From: Gemmatimonadales bacterium
GTDB lineage: Bacteria; Gemmatimonadota; Gemmatimonadetes; Gemmatimonadales; GWC2-71-9
Length of the DNA stretch: 24,865 bases
Assembly (NCBI GenBank): GCA_041613315.1
Contig: JBFJHJ010000038.1
Location: 1 to 24,865 of the forward strand
Reading direction: 5' to 3'
How positions within the stretch are numbered: position 1 is the first letter of the stretch; the number at the start of each line of letters is the position of its first letter. Of this stretch, positions 4-22,633 are shown in pieces. Below the pieces are notes generated by a model. It saw nothing but the letters and a program-made list of their open reading frames with translations, made no database searches and had not been told where the DNA came from. Made by a program: the position numbers and the translations under genes.

Positions 4-9
4 TAGATT
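4..9 (+). promoter_or_regulatory. Putative -10 element (TAGATT) of the met leader promoter
   Basis: TAnnnT hexamer about 20 nt upstream of the riboswitch aptamer. The -35 would lie outside the window. Confidence 0.4.
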
Positions 10-28
10 CCTCACCGACAATCGTGAT

Positions 29-76
29 CCGTGGTGATTTGCGCCTATTGCAGCCACGTTAAACAAGTCGCTAAAA
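29..76 (+). ncRNA. SAM-II (SAM_alpha-like) riboswitch aptamer
   Basis: CCGTGGTGATTTG...TTGCAGCCACGTTAAACAAGTCGCTAAAA matches the SAM-II consensus. P1 is CGTGG-TG (30-36) paired with CA-G-CCACG (51-58). Pseudoknot pairings are TTG(48-50)/CAA(64-66) and GCG(41-43)/CGC(69-71), with the conserved AUUU and CUAAA segments. It lies directly upstream of metH. Confidence 0.9.
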
Positions 77-81
77 CGCCC

Positions 82-110
82 GCCCCGGCGCCTCGCGACC
101 GGGGTTTTTT
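82..110 (+). terminator. Intrinsic terminator/attenuator in the metH leader
   Basis: CCCCGG(83-88)/CCGGGG(99-104) stem followed by T6 (105-110), between the aptamer and the metH start. Confidence 0.85.
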
Positions 111-155
111 CGTTTGACGTGAGGTGTGAGCGGTGAGCGGGCTAGGAGACGTGGT

Positions 156-3874
<3,719 letters not shown>

Positions 3875-3878
<4 letters not shown>

Positions 3879-5713
3879 GCGACCGGCTGCGCACGCTCAT
3901 TGCCGACCGCCGTATCCACGTCCTGGACGGCGCGATGGGCACGATGCTCTACACCAAGGGCGTTTTCGTCAACGTGTGCTACGACGAGTTGACCGTGTCG
4001 CAGCCGGCGCTGGTCCGGGAGGTGCACGAGGCCTACGTGCGCGCGGGGGCCGAAGGGATCGAGACCAACACGTTCGGGGCGAACCCGGTCAAGCTCTCGA
4101 GCTTCGGTCTCGACGCCCGCACCGAGGAGATCAACCGGCGCGCCGCGGAACTCGCCCGGGAGGTGGCGGGGGACCGGGTGGCCGTGTTGGGCGCGATCGG
4201 ACCGCTCGGGATCCGGATCGAGCCGTTCGGGCCGACCGCCCGCGCCGAGGCGATCGCGTACTTCACCCGGCAGGCCACGGGGCTCGCGGGTGGCGGGGTG
4301 GACGGGTTCATGCTGGAGACCTTCAGCGACGCCGAAGAACTGTGGGCCGCGCTCCTCGCCGTGCGGGCCGTGTCCGACCGACCGGTGATGGCCCAGGTCA
4401 CGATCACCGAGGACGGGAAGACGGCCTACGGCGCCGAGGTGGAACGGGTCACGGAGCAGATGACCGAGTGGGAAGCGGACGTGGTGGGCCTCAACTGCTC
4501 GGTCGGCCCCGCGTTCATGCTCGAGGCGCTGGAACGGATGGCGGCGGTCACCGACCGGCCACTCTCGGCCCAACCCAATGCCGGCATGCCGCGCGTCGTG
4601 GGCGACCGGAAGATCTACCTCTCGAGCCCGGAGTACATGGCGAATTACGCGCTTCGCATGATCGACGCCGGCGCGCGCTTCGTCGGGGGATGCTGCGGCA
4701 CGACGCCCGAGCACATCAAATGCATTCGCGATCTCGTGGCGACACGGGAGCCCCGGCAGGTCACGGCGGTGGTGGAGCGCACGCGGGTGCGGGCGGCCTC
4801 GGGTGTGCAGCCCACGCCACTGGCGGAGCGCTCGCGATGGGGCCGCAAGCTGGCGGCGGGCGAGTGGGTCACGAGCGTCGAGATTCTCCCTCCCAAGGGG
4901 GCGTCGGCGGAGAGCTTGGTGCGACAGGCGAGAGCGCTCGAGGCCGCCGGCGTGGATGCGGTGAGTTTGTTGGACGGCTCTCGGGCCCAGAGTCGCATGG
5001 GCGTGATCCCGGCGGCGATCCTCGTGCAACGCGATGCGGGGATCGAAACGATCGCGCACTACAGCTGCCGCGACCGTAACATGCTGGGGATGATCAGCGA
5101 TCTCCTGGGCGCCGCCGCGGCCGGGATTCGCAACCTCCTGATCGTGACCGGCGACCCGCCGCGCACGGGGCCCTACCCCGACTCGACGGCGGTGTTCGAT
5201 ATCGACTCGATCGGCCTGACCAACGTCGTCTACCGCCTGAATCACGGCGTGAACCCCGGCGGGGACGCCGTCGGCGACCCCACGCGCTACGTCATCGGTG
5301 TGGCGCTCAACTACGCGGCGGCGGACCCCGAACGGGAGCTGAGCCGCTTCCACTGGAAGGTGGACGCCGGCGCCGACTTCGCCGTGACCCAACCCGTGTT
5401 CGATCCCGAGCGGCTGGCGCGCTTCCTCGAACGGGTGTCGGATACCCGCATCCCGGTGATCGCCGGCATCTGGCCCCTGCTCTCACTCCGCAACGCCGAG
5501 TTCCTGGCGAACGAGGTGCCGGGGGTCCACGTGCCGCGACGGGTCATCGAGCGCATGCGCGCGGGACAGGCGCGGGGGGACGACGCTGCCCGAGCGGAGG
5601 GCATCGCCATGTCGCGGGAGATGCGCGATGCGATGGCGCCTCTGGTGCAGGGGATGCAGGTGAGCGCGCCGCTGGGGCACGTAGAGCTGGCGCTCGCGGT
5701 GGTGGGAGACTGA
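3875..5713 (+). CDS. yitJ: Bifunctional homocysteine S-methyltransferase / 5,10-methylenetetrahydrofolate reductase (YitJ type)
   Basis: N-terminal HMT domain (DGAMGT, GLNCSVG, GGCCGT) and C-terminal MTHFR domain ([30 protein letters not shown]). ATGA overlap with the metH stop. Confidence 0.93.
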
Positions 5714-11506: not shown

Positions 11507-12820
11507 TCACAACCGCCCCCGCCGCTTGAGCTGCAGGTATTGCTCCACGACCGCCGGGCTCGCGTGGCTCGGCTGGACGTCGAGCACGAGCGCGCCCGCA
11601 CGGCGCATCTCGGCCAGCGCTTCCGCGCGGGCCGCCAGCAGCTCCTCCGCCGCGGCCTTCCGGTAGGCCTGCGGCACCGTCTGCGGCCGCGTCGACGCCG
11701 TGCCGTCCAACTCCGGGTTCCGGAGCGTGACGACGAGCGGCAGGTGCCGCGGCCGCAGCGACGCCACGTGGCTCACCAACGCCTCGGACGCCAGTCGATC
11801 GATCACATCGGTGAAGACGATCGTCAGGGCGCGCTTGCGGTTGCGAATGGCGAGGTAGCGGAACGCATTCGGATAATCGGGCTCCACCAACACCGGCTCG
11901 ACCACGGCCAGAACGTCGAGGACGCGCCGGAGTCCGCGGCGGCCGCGCTGCGGCATCACGTAATGGTGCACGCGGTCGGAGAACACCATCACTCCCACGT
12001 TGTCGTCGTGGTAGGTGGCGGCGAACGCGACCCACAGGGCGGCCCGCACCACGTGCTCCATCCGTGCCTCGCCTGCGATGTCCGCCGTGAGGAGCCGACC
12101 CGCGTCCAACACCAAGAGCACTTGTTGGCGTCGCTCCTCCTCGAACTGCCGGGCGATCAGTGTGCGCCGCCGCGCGCTCGCTTTCCAGTCGATGTGACGC
12201 GGGTCGTCGCCGGGAACCCATTCGCGCAGGCTCTCGAACTGGCGACCCTCTCCCAATCGCCTGGCGCCGCGCAGTCCCGCCTCGGGCCGCCGCACCGCTG
12301 CCGCAATCGAAGCCTTGAGCCGCGACGCCGGCAGGCCCGGATACACGATCACGCTCCACGGCAGGTCGAGCCGCCACTGCCGCTGGCCCAGCCCAAGGGC
12401 GCCTCGGCTGCGCACGACGAGCGAGCCGGCGGCGTCGCGTCCCCGCCGGCGCGGCAGGACCTCGATCTCGTCGCGCGCCGACGCCTCAGGGGGCACCACA
12501 AGATCGCGCGGGGGCTGCACCCCCCCCAACAGAGCCGGCCGGGTTTCCCGAATCCGGAGCCGGGCCGCTCTCGAGCGGCGATTCGCCCATACGTAGGCGC
12601 CCGTCGTGGGACGACCGACGGAGAAGCTCCCCGGCGCGTCGCGCTGCACGTCGAGGCGTCGCGCGCCCGGTGCGAAGTAGCCGTCGGCGATCACGAGCAG
12701 GATCAAAGCAGCATCCAGTCCCACCACGACGTCCAGCGCGACCGGCGTCACGTACCCGAGCACCGCCACCGGCGCCACCACGGCGATGAGCCATAACGCC
12801 CGTCGAGTGGGGAGGATCAC
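11507..12820 (-). CDS. DUF58 / vWA-like MoxR-associated protein
   Basis: FESLREWVPGDDPRHIDWKASAR motif, LDAGR and VFTD vWA-like elements, and an N-terminal hydrophobic hairpin. GTG 12820 overlaps the moxR stop (GTGA). Confidence 0.9.
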   Translation of the reverse strand: MILPTRRALWLIAVVAPVAVLGYVTPVALDVVVGLDAALILLVIADGYFAPGARRLDVQRDAPGSFSVGRPTTGAYVWANRRSRAARLRIRETRPALLGGVQPPRDLVVPPEASARDEIEVLPRRRGRDAAGSLVVRSRGALGLGQRQWRLDLPWSVIVYPGLPASRLKASIAAAVRRPEAGLRGARRLGEGRQFESLREWVPGDDPRHIDWKASARRRTLIARQFEEERRQQVLLVLDAGRLLTADIAGEARMEHVVRAALWVAFAATYHDDNVGVMVFSDRVHHYVMPQRGRRGLRRVLDVLAVVEPVLVEPDYPNAFRYLAIRNRKRALTIVFTDVIDRLASEALVSHVASLRPRHLPLVVTLRNPELDGTASTRPQTVPQAYRKAAAEELLAARAEALAEMRRAGALVLDVQPSHASPAVVEQYLQLKRRGRL

Positions 12821-13773
12821 GTTGCCGGGGCCTCGGTCTGCTCGAGGATCGCTCTGAGCGCGACGTCGGGTGAGACACCCTCGAGCTCGAGCTCCGGCGC
12901 TACCTGCACACGGTGCCGCAGCACGGCGGGGGCGAACCGCTTCACGTCGTCGGGGATCACGAAGTCGCGGCCCTCGAGAAAGGCGTGCGCCCGCGCCGTC
13001 TTGAGCAGTGCGACGCCGGCGCGGGGGCTCCCGCCCAGCGTGAGCGACGCCGCGTCCCGGGTCGCCCTGACGATGGTGGTGATGTAGGCGGTGATGCGTT
13101 CGTCCACCCGCACGCGGCGCACGGCTTCCCGGAGCGCGCCCACGCCGTCCGCGTCCAGCACCGGCGTGATGCCGTATGTCTCGGGCTCGTCCGCCTCGAA
13201 GCCCTCGAGGTAGCGCCCCAGGATGCCCTGCTCGACGTCGGCCGCCGGGTAGTCGATCGACACCTTCACCAGGAAGCGATCCAGCTCCGCCTCGGGCAAC
13301 GGATACGTGCCCTCGAACTCGATGGGGTTCTGCGTAGCGAACACGGTGAAGGTCGGCGGCAGCGGGTGGCTCGTGCCGTCCACGGTGACCATGCGCTCTT
13401 GCATCGCCTCCAACAGCGCGGCCTGCGTCTTGGCCGGCGCCCGGTTGATCTCGTCCGCCAGCACCAGGTCGTGGAACACGGGACCCGGTCGAAACAGGAA
13501 TTCGTAACGGTCCGTGAGTACGGAGATGCCGGTGATGTCTCCCGGCATGAGATCGGGCGTGAACTGGATGCGCGCATAGCTCACGTTGATCGCGCGGGCG
13601 AGGGCCCGCACCAGGAGCGTCTTGGCGGTGCCGGGCACCCCTTCCAGCAACACGTGGCCGCGTGCCAGGAGCGCCACCAGGCACTCGCGGAGAGCGTCGT
13701 CCTGTCCCAGCACGACCCCGCGGAGCGACGCTAGGACCGCCCGGGCCTGGTCGATGGTCGCAGTGCTTCCCAC
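12817..13773 (-). CDS. moxR: MoxR family AAA+ ATPase
   Basis: Walker A GVPGTAKT, RIQFTPDLMPGDITG, Walker B LADEINR, ATQNPIE and PLPEAELDRF. GGAGGA RBS. Confidence 0.95.
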   Translation of the reverse strand: MGSTATIDQARAVLASLRGVVLGQDDALRECLVALLARGHVLLEGVPGTAKTLLVRALARAINVSYARIQFTPDLMPGDITGISVLTDRYEFLFRPGPVFHDLVLADEINRAPAKTQAALLEAMQERMVTVDGTSHPLPPTFTVFATQNPIEFEGTYPLPEAELDRFLVKVSIDYPAADVEQGILGRYLEGFEADEPETYGITPVLDADGVGALREAVRRVRVDERITAYITTIVRATRDAASLTLGGSPRAGVALLKTARAHAFLEGRDFVIPDDVKRFAPAVLRHRVQVAPELELEGVSPDVALRAILEQTEAPAT

Positions 13774-15041
13774 ACATCCTCCACGGCTAGGGCGGCCGCG
13801 AGCACGTCTGCGTGGCCGCCGGGTTCACGCACGAGTCGGCGGAGCTGCTCCACCGCTCGCCGCGCTTCCGGACGTTCCGTTGCGAGCGCGAGGGAGCCGA
13901 GCCAGGCGTCGAGGTTACCGCCTCCCCGGCGCAGCGTGCCGCCGGCGCGACTCAGCCGCCGCCGCAGCCCTTCGGCGATGCGCTGGACCGAAATCTCCTT
14001 CCCCTGTCCCCGCTCCAGCCCGACCGCGAGGGCCTCGAGGTGCTCCATCGGCGAGCGGCGGCGGCGTTCCACGACCCGCAACGCCGGGCCGAAGCGTACC
14101 GCCGCCGCGGCGAGCGCGAGCAGCCCCGCGAAAGCGAGCTGGAGCATCGCCCACCCCGCCGGCGAGTGCACCGACCACCGCCAGGCAGCGGCGAAGATCG
14201 AGCCACCCGTGCCAAACCCCTGGTGATACTCGTCCACCACGACCCGCGCGGGACCTTCGTCCAGCAGCCACGAGAGCACCAGCACTCCGGCATCCGTCGT
14301 CCGCATCTCCCGGTTCGTGACGTATCGTGAGTCGGCGAGCACGACGGCGCGCCCGCCGCTTTCCGTGGTGAAGCGAACGGCGACCGGGGCACCGTCGCGC
14401 GTCGCCAACAACTCGTCGCGTGACGCGCCACCCCGCACCGCGCACGACTCCTCGTCCGACGTCCGCACGAACCGGGAGCGGCGGCGCTCTGCCGTGTCCG
14501 GTACCAACACGACGCGCGGGGCCGGCAGCGAGTCGAAGCCACGTGGTATCACCACCGGACGTCCTTCCTGCTCGTCCCAGGGGTCGCGCACCGTCTCGAG
14601 ACGGAGGCCGAAGCACCGCTCGACACCGGTCTCGCCCGCGCTGAGCACCGCACCCCCTCGCTCGATGTACCGCGCCACCTCCCGGACCTCGACGTCGGAG
14701 GGTGGGGCGGCGCCGGTGCGGACGCTCCCGAGTGCCGGACTGAACGTCACGGGCGCGAAATCCAGGAGCAGGAGCCAGCTGTCCCGATCCACCTCGGTGC
14801 TCTCCGCCGCGAGCCCGAACAGCGAGCGCCGACGGCGCTCGACCGGGATCCGCAGTGCTTCCAACGCCTCCGCGAGACCGCTCGAGCCCCAGGGCCCGGT
14901 GATCGCCACTGAGCGGCGAGGGTCGAGCATCCGGCGGTCCGGCGCCGCGCGAAGGCCGGCGAGCGCGGCCAGGACCACCGCAGTCGCCGAGAGGACGAGC
15001 GCGACGACGATCAGCGGACGTGCCGCCGATTCACGCGCCAT
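13731..15041 (-). CDS. DUF4350 domain membrane-anchored protein
   Basis: N-terminal TM, large soluble domain (GRAVVLADS...N), VVDEYHQG, second TM followed by RFGP, in the canonical position upstream of moxR. Confidence 0.75.
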   Translation of the reverse strand: MARESAARPLIVVALVLSATAVVLAALAGLRAAPDRRMLDPRRSVAITGPWGSSGLAEALEALRIPVERRRRSLFGLAAESTEVDRDSWLLLLDFAPVTFSPALGSVRTGAAPPSDVEVREVARYIERGGAVLSAGETGVERCFGLRLETVRDPWDEQEGRPVVIPRGFDSLPAPRVVLVPDTAERRRSRFVRTSDEESCAVRGGASRDELLATRDGAPVAVRFTTESGGRAVVLADSRYVTNREMRTTDAGVLVLSWLLDEGPARVVVDEYHQGFGTGGSIFAAAWRWSVHSPAGWAMLQLAFAGLLALAAAAVRFGPALRVVERRRRSPMEHLEALAVGLERGQGKEISVQRIAEGLRRRLSRAGGTLRRGGGNLDAWLGSLALATERPEARRAVEQLRRLVREPGGHADVLAAALAVEDVWEALRPSTRPGRS

Positions 15042-15651
15042 GCGTCACGAGGCCGGCCGCCCGCTCGCGGAACCGGCGGGCGTCCTCCGCGGTGCAAGGC
15101 GCGCCGCCGAAGAGATGCCGGTATAGCGTCCCCACCAGTTCGGCGAGAACGCCGACGCCCTCGCCGTCGAGCCGCGCTTCGCCGACGTACTCCGCCGGCG
15201 TCTTGGAGGGGTGGAACACGAGCGACTTGCGTCGGTCGAGCTCGAGCAACGTCGCGGTGAAGCGGTGGCCCAGCGCTTCCGCGTAACGGCCGTCGGCCTC
15301 CAGCCGGTCCGCCCGCTCCCGGTACCAGCCCGCGCCGCGTCCCTCGGCAGCCGCAGTCGGCGCGGCGGCACCCGGGTCGCGCCGTGGCCGCAGCGCACGC
15401 GTCACGAGATACACGAAATGGGCGAGTATGGCGACCACGGCGGCGGCGAGCACGGCGACGACCACCCAATGCACGATGGGGTGCTCCTGCTCGAGTCTGG
15501 CGAACCACTCCAGGACCGCCTGCCACAGCTCCACCAGCACCACGAAGGGGTTGGCCGGCATCGAGCGCCACTCGTATGCCGGCGTGCCGTATACGTGGTC
15601 GAGGACCGCTCGGAGGGAATCGGGGGAAACGTGCTGGGCCGGGTCGATCAC
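15031..15651 (-). CDS. DUF4129 domain protein
   Basis: One TM helix, then A...GRYAEAL...L..LD...SKTPAEY...LY..LFGG, in a canonical operon position. Confidence 0.8.
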   Translation of the reverse strand: MIDPAQHVSPDSLRAVLDHVYGTPAYEWRSMPANPFVVLVELWQAVLEWFARLEQEHPIVHWVVVAVLAAAVVAILAHFVYLVTRALRPRRDPGAAAPTAAAEGRGAGWYRERADRLEADGRYAEALGHRFTATLLELDRRKSLVFHPSKTPAEYVGEARLDGEGVGVLAELVGTLYRHLFGGAPCTAEDARRFRERAAGLVTHGA

Positions 15652-16415
15652 GCGCCGGCAGGTTCGGAGCCGAACCCCAACTGCTCGCTCAGGTGCACGA
15701 GATCGAAGGCTTCCTTACGGACGCGGAGGTCGTAATAGAACAGCGTGAACGCGCACGCGATGAGGGGATAGAGCATGAACCCCACGACGCGACCGACGAG
15801 GTCGAGCGGCATCGCGAGCGACGGCACAAAGATCGCGAGCACACCCATCGCAGCACCGGGGAGGGACGCCAAGACGTAGATCACGAAGCCGAGTCCCAGC
15901 GCCTTGCCTTTGAATCCCTTCGTCAGGCTCCAGGAGCGCCCCAGGGCATCGATCGCCGAACCGCCCTCGAGCACGACCACCTGGGCGACCACCGCGTAGC
16001 CGCACGCGACGATGATGCCGGGCACGATGAGGAAGATGCTCGCGAAGATGATGAGGAGGTACTTCACGAGCCCCGACACCAGGAGTCCCCACATCTTGCC
16101 GAGCGCGAAACCCAGCGCCTCCCCGACGGTTGGCGAGCGTCCGAGGTAGCCTTCCGATACCACGTGGACGATCGCCCCGGCGGCCCAGAGCCCGCCGATC
16201 ATGAAGAGCAGCAGGCTCAAGGAAAACAGTCCGAGGTACATCGGCTCGAAGGCGACGCCCCCGATGGCGAGCACGGAGTACATCATCAGGGCGAAGGGGA
16301 GCCCCTCGGAGACGAGCAGGATCCCCATGAGCACGGGGAACTGGCGCCCGAAGATCGTGAAGGCGCCGTCGAGGATCTCCCCGAACGACATGGCGCGGAG
16401 TTGATACGTAGCCAT
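15648..16415 (-). CDS. Conserved multi-pass membrane protein (GDPD membrane-anchor/YciC-like)
   Basis: LRAMSFGEILDGAF N-terminus, ALGRSWSLTKG and YYDLRVRKEAFD C-terminus, about six TM helices. GAGGGGG RBS before ATG 16415. Confidence 0.8.
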   Translation of the reverse strand: MATYQLRAMSFGEILDGAFTIFGRQFPVLMGILLVSEGLPFALMMYSVLAIGGVAFEPMYLGLFSLSLLLFMIGGLWAAGAIVHVVSEGYLGRSPTVGEALGFALGKMWGLLVSGLVKYLLIIFASIFLIVPGIIVACGYAVVAQVVVLEGGSAIDALGRSWSLTKGFKGKALGLGFVIYVLASLPGAAMGVLAIFVPSLAMPLDLVGRVVGFMLYPLIACAFTLFYYDLRVRKEAFDLVHLSEQLGFGSEPAGA

Positions 16416-16446
16416 AGGCCCCCCTCGGCGATAAGATGGTCCTCCG

Positions 16447-18279
16447 ATGCCGCCGACGCGAGCCCCGAGGACGCCCGAATTCTCCAGACGGATCTCCGTC
16501 GAGACCCCCGAGCACGTCACGCTCAAGTTCGAGCTCGCGGGCCTGGGATCGCGTGCCGCGGCGGCAATCTACGACATCGTCGCGCTCGGCTTCATCGCCA
16601 TCGCCGTCGGCGTGCTATTCGCCGTCGTCGCGGGTGGCCTCATGAGCGCCACGAGCGGGGCCGGCGGCGGGTGGGTGAGCGCGGGCCTCATTCTCCTCTT
16701 TTTCGGCGTGGTGTGGGGCTACTTCGCGCTGTTCGAGGCCTTTTCCGAGGGCCGCACGCCGGGCAAGCGACGCATGGGCATCCGCGTCGTGATGGACACC
16801 GGCCATCCCGTCACCTTCCAGGCGGCGATGGTGCGGAACCTGGTGCGGATCGTGGACGTCCAGCCGGGTTTCTCGTACGTCGTCGGCATCCTGTTCGCCG
16901 CGTTTCACCCGGCGAACAAGCGTCTGGGCGACATCGTGGCCGGTACGATCGTCGTCCGCGACCGCCCCGAGGACCTGACGCTGGCGCTGCCGGCGACCGG
17001 TGAGGCCGAGCCGATCAATGCCGGGCCGCCCCGGCTGTCCGACGACGAGTTCCGGTTGCTCGACCAGTTCATGGCCCGGTACGTGGAGCTCCCGGCGGCG
17101 GTGCGCGACCGCTTCGCCGCCGAGCTTGCCGGCCGGCTGGCCGACCGGTTCCCGGACCGGGATCCGCGCCCCGGCACATTCTTGATGCACCTCCATCGCG
17201 ACGAGCGCGACCGGCGCCGTGCCCGCACGGCCGTGCGCCGCGGGGCGGGCGGGGCCGCGGCGTTGGCGAGCGGCGACCGCTTCGTCGCGCTTCGCCAGCC
17301 GGTGTGGGAACGTTTCCGGGAGCGCGCGAGCGCCGCGGAGCGGCGGGGGCTCAAGAACTTCACGGGCCGGGAGCTCACCGCGTTCGCCGCCGACTACCGG
17401 ATGGTCGCCGCCGACCTCGCGCGCGCCCGTACGTACGCGGTGGACCCTCGTGTGCTCGCCTATCTCGAGCGGGTGGTGAGCAGCGGTCACAATGCGTTGT
17501 ACGGACTCCGCGGAGTCTCACGCCTGCCGATCGGCCGGCTGCTCTTGACGGAGCTTCCCGCCGCAGCGTACCGCGCCCGGCGCTACGTGCTGGCCGCGTG
17601 TCTGATGTTCGTCCTTCCGGGCATTGCCGGGTACGTGCTGATCCGCGAGCAGCCGGAGGTGGCGCGCCAGGTGCTGCCGGACGAGATGATCGCCCGGGCC
17701 GAGGCGGGGCTGTATCGGCAGCAAGAGGGCGTCGGCTATGCGCAGTCCCCGGACCCGTTCCTCCCGATCGTGGCATCCACGATCATCGCGAACAACGTGC
17801 AGGTGGCGTTCGGCGCGTTCGCCTTCGGGATCACCGCCGGCGTGGGCACGGTCTTCGTGCTGGTCTTCAACGGCCTCTTCTTCGGCGCCATCCTCGGGAT
17901 GTTCGCGAACTACGGGCTGGCGGGATGGATCCTGACGTTCGTGGCGGGGCACGGGGTGCTGGAGCTGACGGCGATCTTCATGGCGGGCGGGGCCGGGCTG
18001 CTGATCGCCCGGGCGTTGGTGGCGCCCGGCGATCTCACGCGCCGGGATGCGTTGGTGACCGCGGGGCGGACGGCGGTGCGCGTTGTTGGGGCGGCGGTGT
18101 GCCTGCTCCTCCTCGCCGGGACGATCGAGGGGCTCCTGTCGGCGAGCGGCGCGCCCGCCGCGTTCAAGCTGGGCGTGAGTGCGGCGAGCGCGCTGCTCGT
18201 GGTGCTCTACTTCGAAGCCGGCCGCCGGGCGGCGGCTTCATTCAGTTCACCGGAAACCGGACGCGCTAGCCCTTCGTGA
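16447..18279 (+). CDS. RDD domain - SpoIIM (stage II sporulation protein M-like) domain fusion membrane protein
   Basis: N-terminal RDD (ETPEHV...LAGLGSR...GRTPGKR...RNLVRIVD...KRLGDIVAGT) and C-terminal SpoIIM/DUF95 (YR.VAADLARART, NNVQVAF, FNG, HGVLEL, AGTIEG), in one uninterrupted frame. Confidence 0.9.
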   Translation: MPPTRAPRTPEFSRRISVETPEHVTLKFELAGLGSRAAAAIYDIVALGFIAIAVGVLFAVVAGGLMSATSGAGGGWVSAGLILLFFGVVWGYFALFEAFSEGRTPGKRRMGIRVVMDTGHPVTFQAAMVRNLVRIVDVQPGFSYVVGILFAAFHPANKRLGDIVAGTIVVRDRPEDLTLALPATGEAEPINAGPPRLSDDEFRLLDQFMARYVELPAAVRDRFAAELAGRLADRFPDRDPRPGTFLMHLHRDERDRRRARTAVRRGAGGAAALASGDRFVALRQPVWERFRERASAAERRGLKNFTGRELTAFAADYRMVAADLARARTYAVDPRVLAYLERVVSSGHNALYGLRGVSRLPIGRLLLTELPAAAYRARRYVLAACLMFVLPGIAGYVLIREQPEVARQVLPDEMIARAEAGLYRQQEGVGYAQSPDPFLPIVASTIIANNVQVAFGAFAFGITAGVGTVFVLVFNGLFFGAILGMFANYGLAGWILTFVAGHGVLELTAIFMAGGAGLLIARALVAPGDLTRRDALVTAGRTAVRVVGAAVCLLLLAGTIEGLLSASGAPAAFKLGVSAASALLVVLYFEAGRRAAASFSSPETGRASPS

Positions 18280-20941: not shown

Positions 20942-21421
20942 ATGACGCGCCCTAGATTCCGGCCCACCCCGGCCGGCAGCATCGCTGCCGGCTACACCCT
21001 GATCGAGCTCGCGATCACGCTGACCCTCGCCGGCCTGCTCTCGGGGATGGTGTTCTGGGGACTGGGCTCGTCCCTGGGCCGGGCCCGCGTCAACCGGGTG
21101 GCGTCGACCTTGGCCTCCGACCTCCAGTACGCCCAGGTCACCGCCGCCCGTCAGCGCCGCCCGGTCGTCGTCATCGTGGATCCGTCCGTGAGGATGTACC
21201 TGATCCGCGACCGGGCGAACGCCAGCCTGGTGTTCCGGCGCCGCTTCCTGGGGGCCGGCTCCGAGCACGGACTCGATTCCCTGGCGGCGACCCCTGCCAC
21301 GTCCGTCGAGATCTTCCCCAACGGCGTGGCGCGGGAGACCACCACCTTCACGGTGGGACTCGGGGGCTACGCGCGGCAGGTCAAGCTCACCCGCGCGGGC
21401 CAGGTGCGGCTCGGTGGCTAG
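20942..21421 (+). CDS. Type IV minor pilin, FimT/FimU/GspH-like
   Basis: Prepilin motif AG|YTLIEL, hydrophobic helix, L.SDLQYAQ.TA, and C-terminal F.PNG...V.LT.AGQV. Confidence 0.82.
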   Translation: MTRPRFRPTPAGSIAAGYTLIELAITLTLAGLLSGMVFWGLGSSLGRARVNRVASTLASDLQYAQVTAARQRRPVVVIVDPSVRMYLIRDRANASLVFRRRFLGAGSEHGLDSLAATPATSVEIFPNGVARETTTFTVGLGGYARQVKLTRAGQVRLGG

Positions 21422-21812
21422 CCGGTCGCGGGAGGCGGGCGTCTCGCTGATCGAGATCATGCTCGCGCTGAGCATTCTCTCGACGGTGCTCGTCGCCTTG
21501 GGGGGCCTCATGTTCCAGGCGGCCTCGCACACGCGCCGCTCGGCCGCCATCGCCTTTCGCGGCGCGGCCAGCGAGCGGGCCGCGGCGTGGGTCCAGAACC
21601 TGCCCTGGGACAGCCTCACCTCCGCGGTGGGGTGCGCGACGGACACGTCGGGCCAGCTCGTCTACACGCGGTGCGTCACCCTACAGACCACGTCGCCCCA
21701 ACTCCGGCGCATGTCGGTGGTGATCACGCCCACCGGGCCCGTCGTGATCAAACCGGACACCGTCGTGATTGACCGCAACCGGCCGCGCCAGCGGTCCACG
21801 CTCAGCCCATGA
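21414..21812 (+). CDS. Type IV minor pilin, PilV/GspI-like
   Basis: Prepilin motif AG|VSLIEI, small size, second position in the cluster and overlap with its neighbours. Confidence 0.8.
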   Translation: MASRSREAGVSLIEIMLALSILSTVLVALGGLMFQAASHTRRSAAIAFRGAASERAAAWVQNLPWDSLTSAVGCATDTSGQLVYTRCVTLQTTSPQLRRMSVVITPTGPVVIKPDTVVIDRNRPRQRSTLSP

Positions 21813-22633
21813 ACCCACGGGGGTTCACCCTGGTCGAGCTGCTGATCGCGCTGACGGTGTTCGCGATCCTGGGCGTCGCGCTCGCGCGCATGCTGGTGAG
21901 CGACTCGCGGTTCGTGAGCGAGCAGGAGGCGATGATGCTGGCGCGCCAGACCGCCCGGGCCGCGCGGAACGCGATGACGGTGGAGCTCCGGATGGTGGGC
22001 GACAACGGGCTCCTCGCCGCGGCGGCAGAGAGCGTGGCGGTTCGCGTGCCCTACGCGTTCGGGATGACCTGTCAGAGCGGGATGGCCGGGACGGTCGCCA
22101 CCCTGATGCCGCCGGATTCTCTCATGTACGCGTCCGCGGTCCCGAGCGGCATGGCGTGGCGCGGGACGACCGGCACGTACACGTTCGTGACCGGCGTGAC
22201 GGTCACGTCCTCGACGGTCACGTCCGCCTGCACGGCCGACAGCATCCGGACCGTGCCCGGCAGCATGCTGATCAACATCAGCGGCATCCCGGGGCCGCTG
22301 ATCCCCCCGTCGGGGCGCATCTTCCACCTCTACCAGAACGTCACCTACCGTTTCGGAGCCTCCACCGAGTTCCCGGGGCGGCGTGCGCTGTGGCGGCGGC
22401 GGGGCACCGATCCGGTGGACGAACTGGTCGCGCCGTTCGACACCGCCGCGCGGTTCGCGTTCCTGGTCGGCCCGAACTCCACGATGCAAGAGGCCCCGCC
22501 CTTCGACCTCACGACGGTGCGCGGCCTCGAGCTGCGGCTCGTGGGCGCCAGCGTGTCCCCGGCTCAGGGCCGGACGAGCCCCGAAACGTTCCCGCTCGTC
22601 ACCCGCGTCGCCTTCGCCAACCGGTTGAACTGA
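21809..22633 (+). CDS. Type IV minor pilin, PilW/GspJ-like
   Basis: Prepilin motif RG|FTLVEL, ELRMVG motif and ATGA overlap. Confidence 0.85.
   Translation: MNPRGFTLVELLIALTVFAILGVALARMLVSDSRFVSEQEAMMLARQTARAARNAMTVELRMVGDNGLLAAAAESVAVRVPYAFGMTCQSGMAGTVATLMPPDSLMYASAVPSGMAWRGTTGTYTFVTGVTVTSSTVTSACTADSIRTVPGSMLINISGIPGPLIPPSGRIFHLYQNVTYRFGASTEFPGRRALWRRRGTDPVDELVAPFDTAARFAFLVGPNSTMQEAPPFDLTTVRGLELRLVGASVSPAQGRTSPETFPLVTRVAFANRLN

Follow-up and report, generated by a model that had tools for sequence, protein, structure and literature searches.

The window, by which we mean the whole stretch of 24,865 nucleotides analysed here, begins with a short leader that carries a likely promoter element, a SAM-II aptamer and an intrinsic terminator, followed by two methionine-pathway genes, metH and a yitJ-type gene. 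The features discussed below are:

4..9, plus strand: likely -10 hexamer TAGATT, at the position of a TAnnnT conserved in related leaders
30..79, plus strand: SAM-II aptamer (RF00521), with its pseudoknot assigned by homology
30-34/54-58, plus strand: P1 stem CGUGG/CCACG, folding probability 0.90-1.00 at all transcript lengths from 90 to 109
36-40, plus strand: L1, GAUUU, part of the aptamer
41-52 and 68-79, plus strand: 5' and 3' strands of P2, part of the aptamer, pseudoknot by homology
41..91, plus strand: pairing 41-45/87-91, present and probably a by-product
67..99, plus strand: predicted antiterminator, outer helix 67-71/95-99 closing inner helix 77-80/87-90 (folding, homologs)
82..110, plus strand: intrinsic terminator, in which A98 bulges from the stem 82-91/95-105 and T6 follows at 105-110 (folding, homologs)
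144..149, plus strand: SD-like AGGAGA, separated by 6 bases from the probable GTG start codon of metH
156..3878, plus strand: metH, cobalamin-dependent methionine synthase (NF007024 and TIGR02082 above cut-off)
3875..5713, plus strand: yitJ-type bifunctional homocysteine S-methyltransferase/methylenetetrahydrofolate reductase (NF006396; PF02574 and PF02219)

That metH and the yitJ-type gene lie behind the aptamer, as the initial annotation of this DNA proposed, is borne out by NCBIfam scores well above the cut-offs (metH, NF007024, 2105.7 bits against 1497; yitJ-type gene, NF006396, 689.1 against 453). The start of metH was chosen by the SD-like sequence and by the NCBIfam match, which begins at residue 9, and the ATG of the yitJ-type gene overlaps the metH stop codon (ATGA). 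The aptamer stands in the leader of methionine-pathway genes and just behind a likely promoter, the setting expected of a SAM-II member. Between terminator and metH, at 121-159, GAGGTG is followed by an eight-codon frame (GTG at 133, VSGLGDVV) whose TGA overlaps the metH GTG. The word GTGAGCGGTGAGC (window 126-138), a short dispersed motif, has 7 matches in the genome against 0 for the reversed control; one match is duplicated by a contig overlap, leaving six distinct sites (the window and contigs C9, C16, C19, C21 and C22). Elsewhere in the window, 11507-18279 contains DUF58, weak DUF4350 and RDD-SpoIIM genes, of types usually found beside MoxR ATPases, and 20942-22633 contains GspH/N-methyl pilin-like genes. 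The phylum suggested earlier, Gemmatimonadota, is probable: the best of 80 listed MetH relatives is a Gemmatimonadales record (71%) and, for another window protein, the best of 8 relatives is titled Gemmatimonadota (48%). A search of the 83% complete genome returned no 16S gene.

A promoter scan confined to the window found none because the -35 element lies outside it; a -35-like TTCCCA stands 17 bases upstream of TAGATT on contig C45, the end of which overlaps the window start by 141 bases. This overlap repeats the locus and accounts for the second RF00521 match in the genome, on C45. Six contig pairs of this genome overlap by exactly 141 bases and appear to mark assembly break points, so that features at those contig ends are counted twice. 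Further upstream on C45 are two genes that we take, from their translations, to be a DUF167-like and a YggT-like frame, followed by the promoter. Of 134 related leaders, 120 have a TAnnnT located 12-24 bases before P1, compared with 4 of 132 leaders at a site 100 bases further upstream, so transcription probably starts near 14-18. ACA[AT] (window 18-22) is found in the 16 bases ahead of P1 in 116 of these 134 leaders and probably belongs to the transcription start region. A fold of 1-125 in which 1-20 pair with 22-45 was rejected because it draws on 1-13, which precede the likely start; transcripts beginning at 14 or 17 retain P1.

The identification of the aptamer as SAM-II held up against the Rfam covariance models. 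RF00521 (SAM-II, SAM_alpha) matches 21-94 over the full model (1-79) with 50.7 bits, a gathering cut-off of 36 and an E-value of 7.3e-9, and is the sole gathering-level Rfam match within the window. The long-loop model RF01726 reaches 21.6 bits on the aptamer against a cut-off of 44, and no further Rfam family appears there at E <= 1, so neither SAM-V nor a second aptamer was found; a search of the 83% complete genome for SAM-I was likewise empty. In the metX SAM-II structure (PDB 2QWY), the pocket residues are U10-U12, U20, U21, G22, U44, A45 and A46 in crystal numbering (PMC3303485, in its accessible text). By alignment these would correspond to U38-U40, U48, U49, G50, U72, A73 and A74 of the window, all of which are present and agree with the RF00521 consensus, and we infer that the aptamer binds SAM. 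The P2b strands are complementary, and the register of P2a is ambiguous: among aptamers with 7-base linkers, 43-79 and 44-78 pair in 69 and 76 of 80, and the alternative 41-79, 42-78 and 43-77 in 69, 77 and 76 of 80. Pairs 52-68 (114 of 136 leaders) and 52-69 (113 of 136) are likewise indistinguishable. The aptamer was said to end about 5 nt before a GC stem, in agreement with a pseudoknot A-run that ends at 76 and a stem that begins at 82; the gap shrinks to two bases when 77-79 are included as P2a-paired.

For comparison, 61 genomes from this family and order were searched, and 53 of them, the window genome included, carry RF00521. The window locus, 29 loci from these genomes and at least 119 loci from a pattern scan, the pattern of which was built from these same aptamers, were pooled; among the 80 scan matches listed, 75 are titled Gemmatimonad-. 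From 149 loci, 4 missed by the pattern and 9 duplicates were removed to give 136, and two were too short, which left 134. The genes behind the 136 aptamers, assigned by short motifs, are 86 metH, 26 yitJ-type, 1 metF and 23 unassigned. An alphaproteobacterial set comprised 116 leaders from at least 120 loci, of which 90-93 had terminators. All leader counts ignore relatedness.

A terminator-like hairpin, defined as -8 kcal/mol or better followed by at least 4 T in 8, stands behind the aptamer in 126 of the 134 related leaders, most of which have Gemmatimonadota in their record titles; an earlier, rougher definition gave 92 leaders with 5 or more T. On its own terms, the window hairpin (82-105, -18.2 kcal/mol) is unremarkable, as shuffled versions of 77-115 fold equally well in 14 of 200 cases and positions 1-600 contain one terminator-like site against 0.5 by chance. 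Of the 8 leaders lacking a terminator, 5 have coding sequence directly 3' of the aptamer, so this group looks to have translational SAM-II alongside the transcriptional platform; leaders in which the aptamer runs into coding sequence without a terminator include the yitJ-type leaders L012, L017, L122, L161 and L201. In the window, AAACG (74-78) can pair with CGTTT (111-115) past the U-tract, which would lengthen the terminator in a read-through transcript, and similar pairings were seen by eye in several homologs. In the one metatranscriptome consulted, 101-150 had no cover, a gap that is uninterpretable as termination given a word share of 0.04 and contigs of other organisms; 324 of the 563 pieces placed on the window were less than 90% alike.

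The terminator is predicted to be mutually exclusive with an antiterminator that draws on the aptamer itself. The initial annotation pointed to two perfect complements, GUCGC/GCGAC (67-71/95-99) and GCGCC/GGCGC (41-45/87-91). Both are exact and, among the 48 aptamer 5-mers in 29-80, they are the only two with a perfect complement in 82-105. A control set of 35 other terminator-like hairpins from this genome (70% G+C) has GCGAC in 3, GGCGC in 9 and both in 1, so neither 5-mer says much by itself, the second least of all; in 2 of the 35, pairing with 67-80 equals that of the real terminator. We find in addition an inner helix, 77-80/87-90, that was absent from the earlier account and that 67-71/95-99 would close. 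Together the two helices come to -13.2 kcal/mol (outer -5.4 and inner -5.9 apart).

The related leaders uphold the pairing of 67-71 with the terminator. With the last five stem bases absent, G70 and C71 in the 3' strand of P2 pair into the unfinished terminator (probability >0.5) in 103 of 126 leaders, against 25.2 expected from shuffles; with the last three absent the count is 93 against 25.2, and with the stem complete it is 24 against 25.4. In a duplex test against its own terminator, the P2 3' strand outperforms shuffles (p <= 0.05) in 63 of 126 leaders and the 5' strand in 7, with p = 0.03 for the 3' strand of the window leader (60, 6 and p = 0.09, respectively, under the rougher terminator calls). 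The 3' arm of the terminator, folded alone, starts with GC in 79 of 126. When this GC, which lies within -3 to +5 in 124 leaders, is set against G70-C71, the paired share of cells at positions 72-78 is 0.77, compared with 0.31-0.57 when the register is slid by 1-3, and typical homologs carry GCUAAAACG opposite CGUUUURGC. TTT[AG]GC is present in 79 of 126 terminators and in 0 of the 35 control terminators, and a complement of 70-75, with G-U allowed, in 81 of 126 against 14.4 ± 3.4 expected.

The outer pairs of the window leader appear to be this conserved helix between pocket strand and terminator, extended leftward. The window leader pairs all three outer positions (67-69), 1 of the 5 central ones (72-76) and 77-80/87-90, whereas most homologs pair 72-76; over 124 rows, leaders with more outer pairs tend to have fewer central ones (Spearman -0.35). 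Across the set, pairing at 67-69 is not general (0.33, against 0.22-0.51 slid), yet where an aptamer has GTC there, GCGAC is found in the terminator in 16 of 19 cases, compared with 3 of 107 for other aptamers; in 4 of the 16 GTC leaders it is placed in the 5' arm. A pocket-strand complement in the 5' arm, not in the loop or 3' arm, is seen in L115, L151, L159 and L171, as in many alphaproteobacterial leaders. The association of GTC with GCGAC sits in a related group and may reflect shared descent: in a tree of 270 columns built from those 70 metH rows, among the 126 leaders, that had sufficient coding sequence, each trait at 67-69/97-99 changes 5 times, and the 2 independent pairs on well-supported branches are too few to test.

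Taken together, we consider it probable that this SAM-II riboswitch turns metH-yitJ off through intrinsic termination under kinetic control, an OFF logic that is predicted from the terminator and the conserved competing helix and that agrees with the initial annotation. P1 would fold first. Without SAM, the emerging terminator would catch the loose 3' strand of P2, with 77-80/87-90 forming before 67-71/95-99, and the antiterminator would occupy the top of both terminator arms as polymerase crosses the U-tract, allowing read-through. With SAM, the pseudoknot would hold 68-79 so that neither antiterminator helix forms, the hairpin 82-105 closes and transcription ends with the release of a roughly 95-base RNA. 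In folds predicted by transcript length, 77-80/87-90 has a probability of 0.88-0.98 at transcript lengths from 90 to 102 and the full antiterminator 0.97-0.99 at lengths 99-101, before the terminator takes over at 103-104; blocking the P2 strands to mimic bound SAM shifts this takeover to 101-102 only. Once the stem is complete, the probability of the antiterminator without SAM is 0.01 in the window leader. The switch must therefore be kinetic, since the finished terminator wins by 5 kcal/mol even without SAM, and the persistence of the antiterminator while the U-tract is crossed is the weakest link of the mechanism. Kinetic control is usual for transcriptional riboswitches.

The initial annotation went further and had both pseudoknot strands captured, with 41-45/87-91 and 67-71/95-99 together forming a pseudoknotted antiterminator. 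This we regard as improbable. The match at 41-45 is an exact 5 bp (-6.7 kcal/mol alone), and complements with G-U allowed exceed shuffles in the group (49 of 126 against 30.6 ± 4.2), as do Watson-Crick complements in alphaproteobacteria (39 of 93 against 12.8 ± 3.3), although self-complementary GCGC/CCGG in P2a may account for these excesses, as may, in alphaproteobacteria, the search pattern, which fixes RCCG there. Watson-Crick matches in the group are at chance (14 of 126 against 11.6 ± 3.0), GGCGC is found in the terminators of 6 of 13 GCGCC aptamers and 28 of 113 others (Fisher p 0.11), and 9 of the 35 control terminators pair with 41-47 as well as the real one does. The pairing also crosses P1; its folding probability is 0.00 with a program that excludes such pairs, a value that is hence no test of the pseudoknotted form. 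Both 42-45 and 77-80 read CGCC, the local helix 77-80/87-90 would take 87-90 first, and 41-45/87-91 is probably a by-product of this repeat with no separate device behind it.

It is unlikely, if less so than capture of both strands, that the terminator is constitutive and leaky and that the aptamer acts otherwise, through RNA stability or a released small RNA, as reported for Sinorhizobium meliloti metA. The stability of the terminator, 5 kcal/mol beyond that of the antiterminator, and its success at full length without ligand speak for such an arrangement, and Scheuer et al. 2022 (PMC9373788, in the text available) validated a terminator that has no predictable riboswitch-driven antiterminator. 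A constitutive terminator would not need complementarity between its top and the pocket strand, however, and this complementarity is conserved far above shuffles. The metA aptamer, moreover, holds an SD, whereas window 72-80 (UAAAACGCC) has none. The absence of an SD from the aptamer also bears on the least probable of the readings, that control is translational, either at a distance or through the eight-codon frame (133-159) overlapping the metH start. GAGGTG (121-126) does precede the GTG at 133, SD action 74 bases away has been reported for metA (PMC9373788, same text), and the 5 of 8 terminator-less leaders point to translational SAM-II in the group. Against this, the minimum free energy fold of 21-165 (z -0.57) has no convincing pairing of the aptamer with 144-149, and the word at 126-138 is not specific to the leader, as 5 other genome sites carry it.

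Returning to kinetic termination, the homologs permit a wider proposal, for which we see about even chances: that in a Gemmatimonadota-type SAM-II the terminator loop and first 3'-arm bases are antisense to the SAM-pocket strand, a conserved platform peculiar to these leaders where many alphaproteobacterial ones rely on the 5' arm, that the decision is purely kinetic, and that the window leader is a variant without the central pairs, compensated by 67-69/97-99 and 77-80/87-90. If true, this platform would provide a worked-out strand-exchange mechanism for transcriptional SAM-II. Because the homolog set names specific pairs, the mechanism is directly testable; a leader of 100 bases and 126 terminator-bearing homologs supply named pairs to mutate. 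Class, ligand, target pathway and logic were known already and no concept is changed; what the homologs add is support for the assignment of the switching strands. As a translational switch SAM-II has been studied in depth, and most alpha- and beta-proteobacterial copies carry terminators (PMC2258182, in its accessible part).

A SAM-II aptamer and a terminator before methionine-synthase genes are thus a mostly ordinary arrangement, and the surprise implied in the initial annotation is misplaced. Already in the founding paper (Corbino et al. 2005, PMC1273637), many representatives have terminators between P2 and the open reading frame, and Barrick and Breaker 2007 (PMC2258182) describe a terminator as the commonest SAM-II arrangement in alpha- and beta-proteobacteria, with a mechanism not yet established. 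A Gluconobacter SAM-II leader shows a 20-fold drop in coverage behind it, with a predicted terminator and antiterminator (PMC5756330). Our literature search, which covered openly accessible papers, returned no paper that combines 'Gemmatimonad' with 'SAM-II' and no dedicated study of a transcriptional SAM-II antiterminator or strand exchange. In their accessible portions, PMC4239095 names metY, metA and metX as SAM-II targets, and the families listed in a recent whole-riboswitch covariation study (PMC12667848) include SAM-I and not RF00521.

With the metA motif (PMC1273637, PMC2258182), the window locus has in common the aptamer, a likely promoter before P1, a terminator between P2 and the open reading frame, a methionine target and the predicted OFF logic. 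It differs in its host, which lies outside the alpha-, beta- and gamma-proteobacteria and Bacteroidetes named there, and in its target, metH-yitJ and not metY, metA or metX; the accessible text of those papers gives no antiterminator helix. The original 120 examples of tandem SAM-II/SAM-V always have SAM-II before an intrinsic terminator (PMC9481103, in the text available), as in the window, which has no SAM-V or second aptamer. The metX SAM-II (PMC3303485, PMC10907184, both in part) has the same pocket residues by homology but acts by direct occlusion of the SD, whereas the SD of the window is about 65 bases downstream, behind the terminator; the initial annotation was right to place it far downstream, though not at about 70 nt. 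Within S. meliloti the accessible text of Scheuer et al. (PMC9373788) offers two precedents: metA shows that SAM does not necessarily control a terminator placed behind SAM-II, and at metZ, as in the window, a SAM-induced terminator is predicted with an alternative fold when SAM is absent (their Fig. S1), and a riboswitch RNA of about 100 bases rises on Northern blots under high-SAM growth. In the alphaproteobacterial leaders, the complement of 67-71 is enriched (25 of 93 against 7.5 ± 2.3), the duplex test on the whole strand gives no more than chance (4 of 90) and a complement of 70-75 is found in 0 of 93. In 59 of 75 cases the complement of 68-71 falls within the 5' arm or loop of their terminators, whereas in the window it forms the start of the 3' arm.
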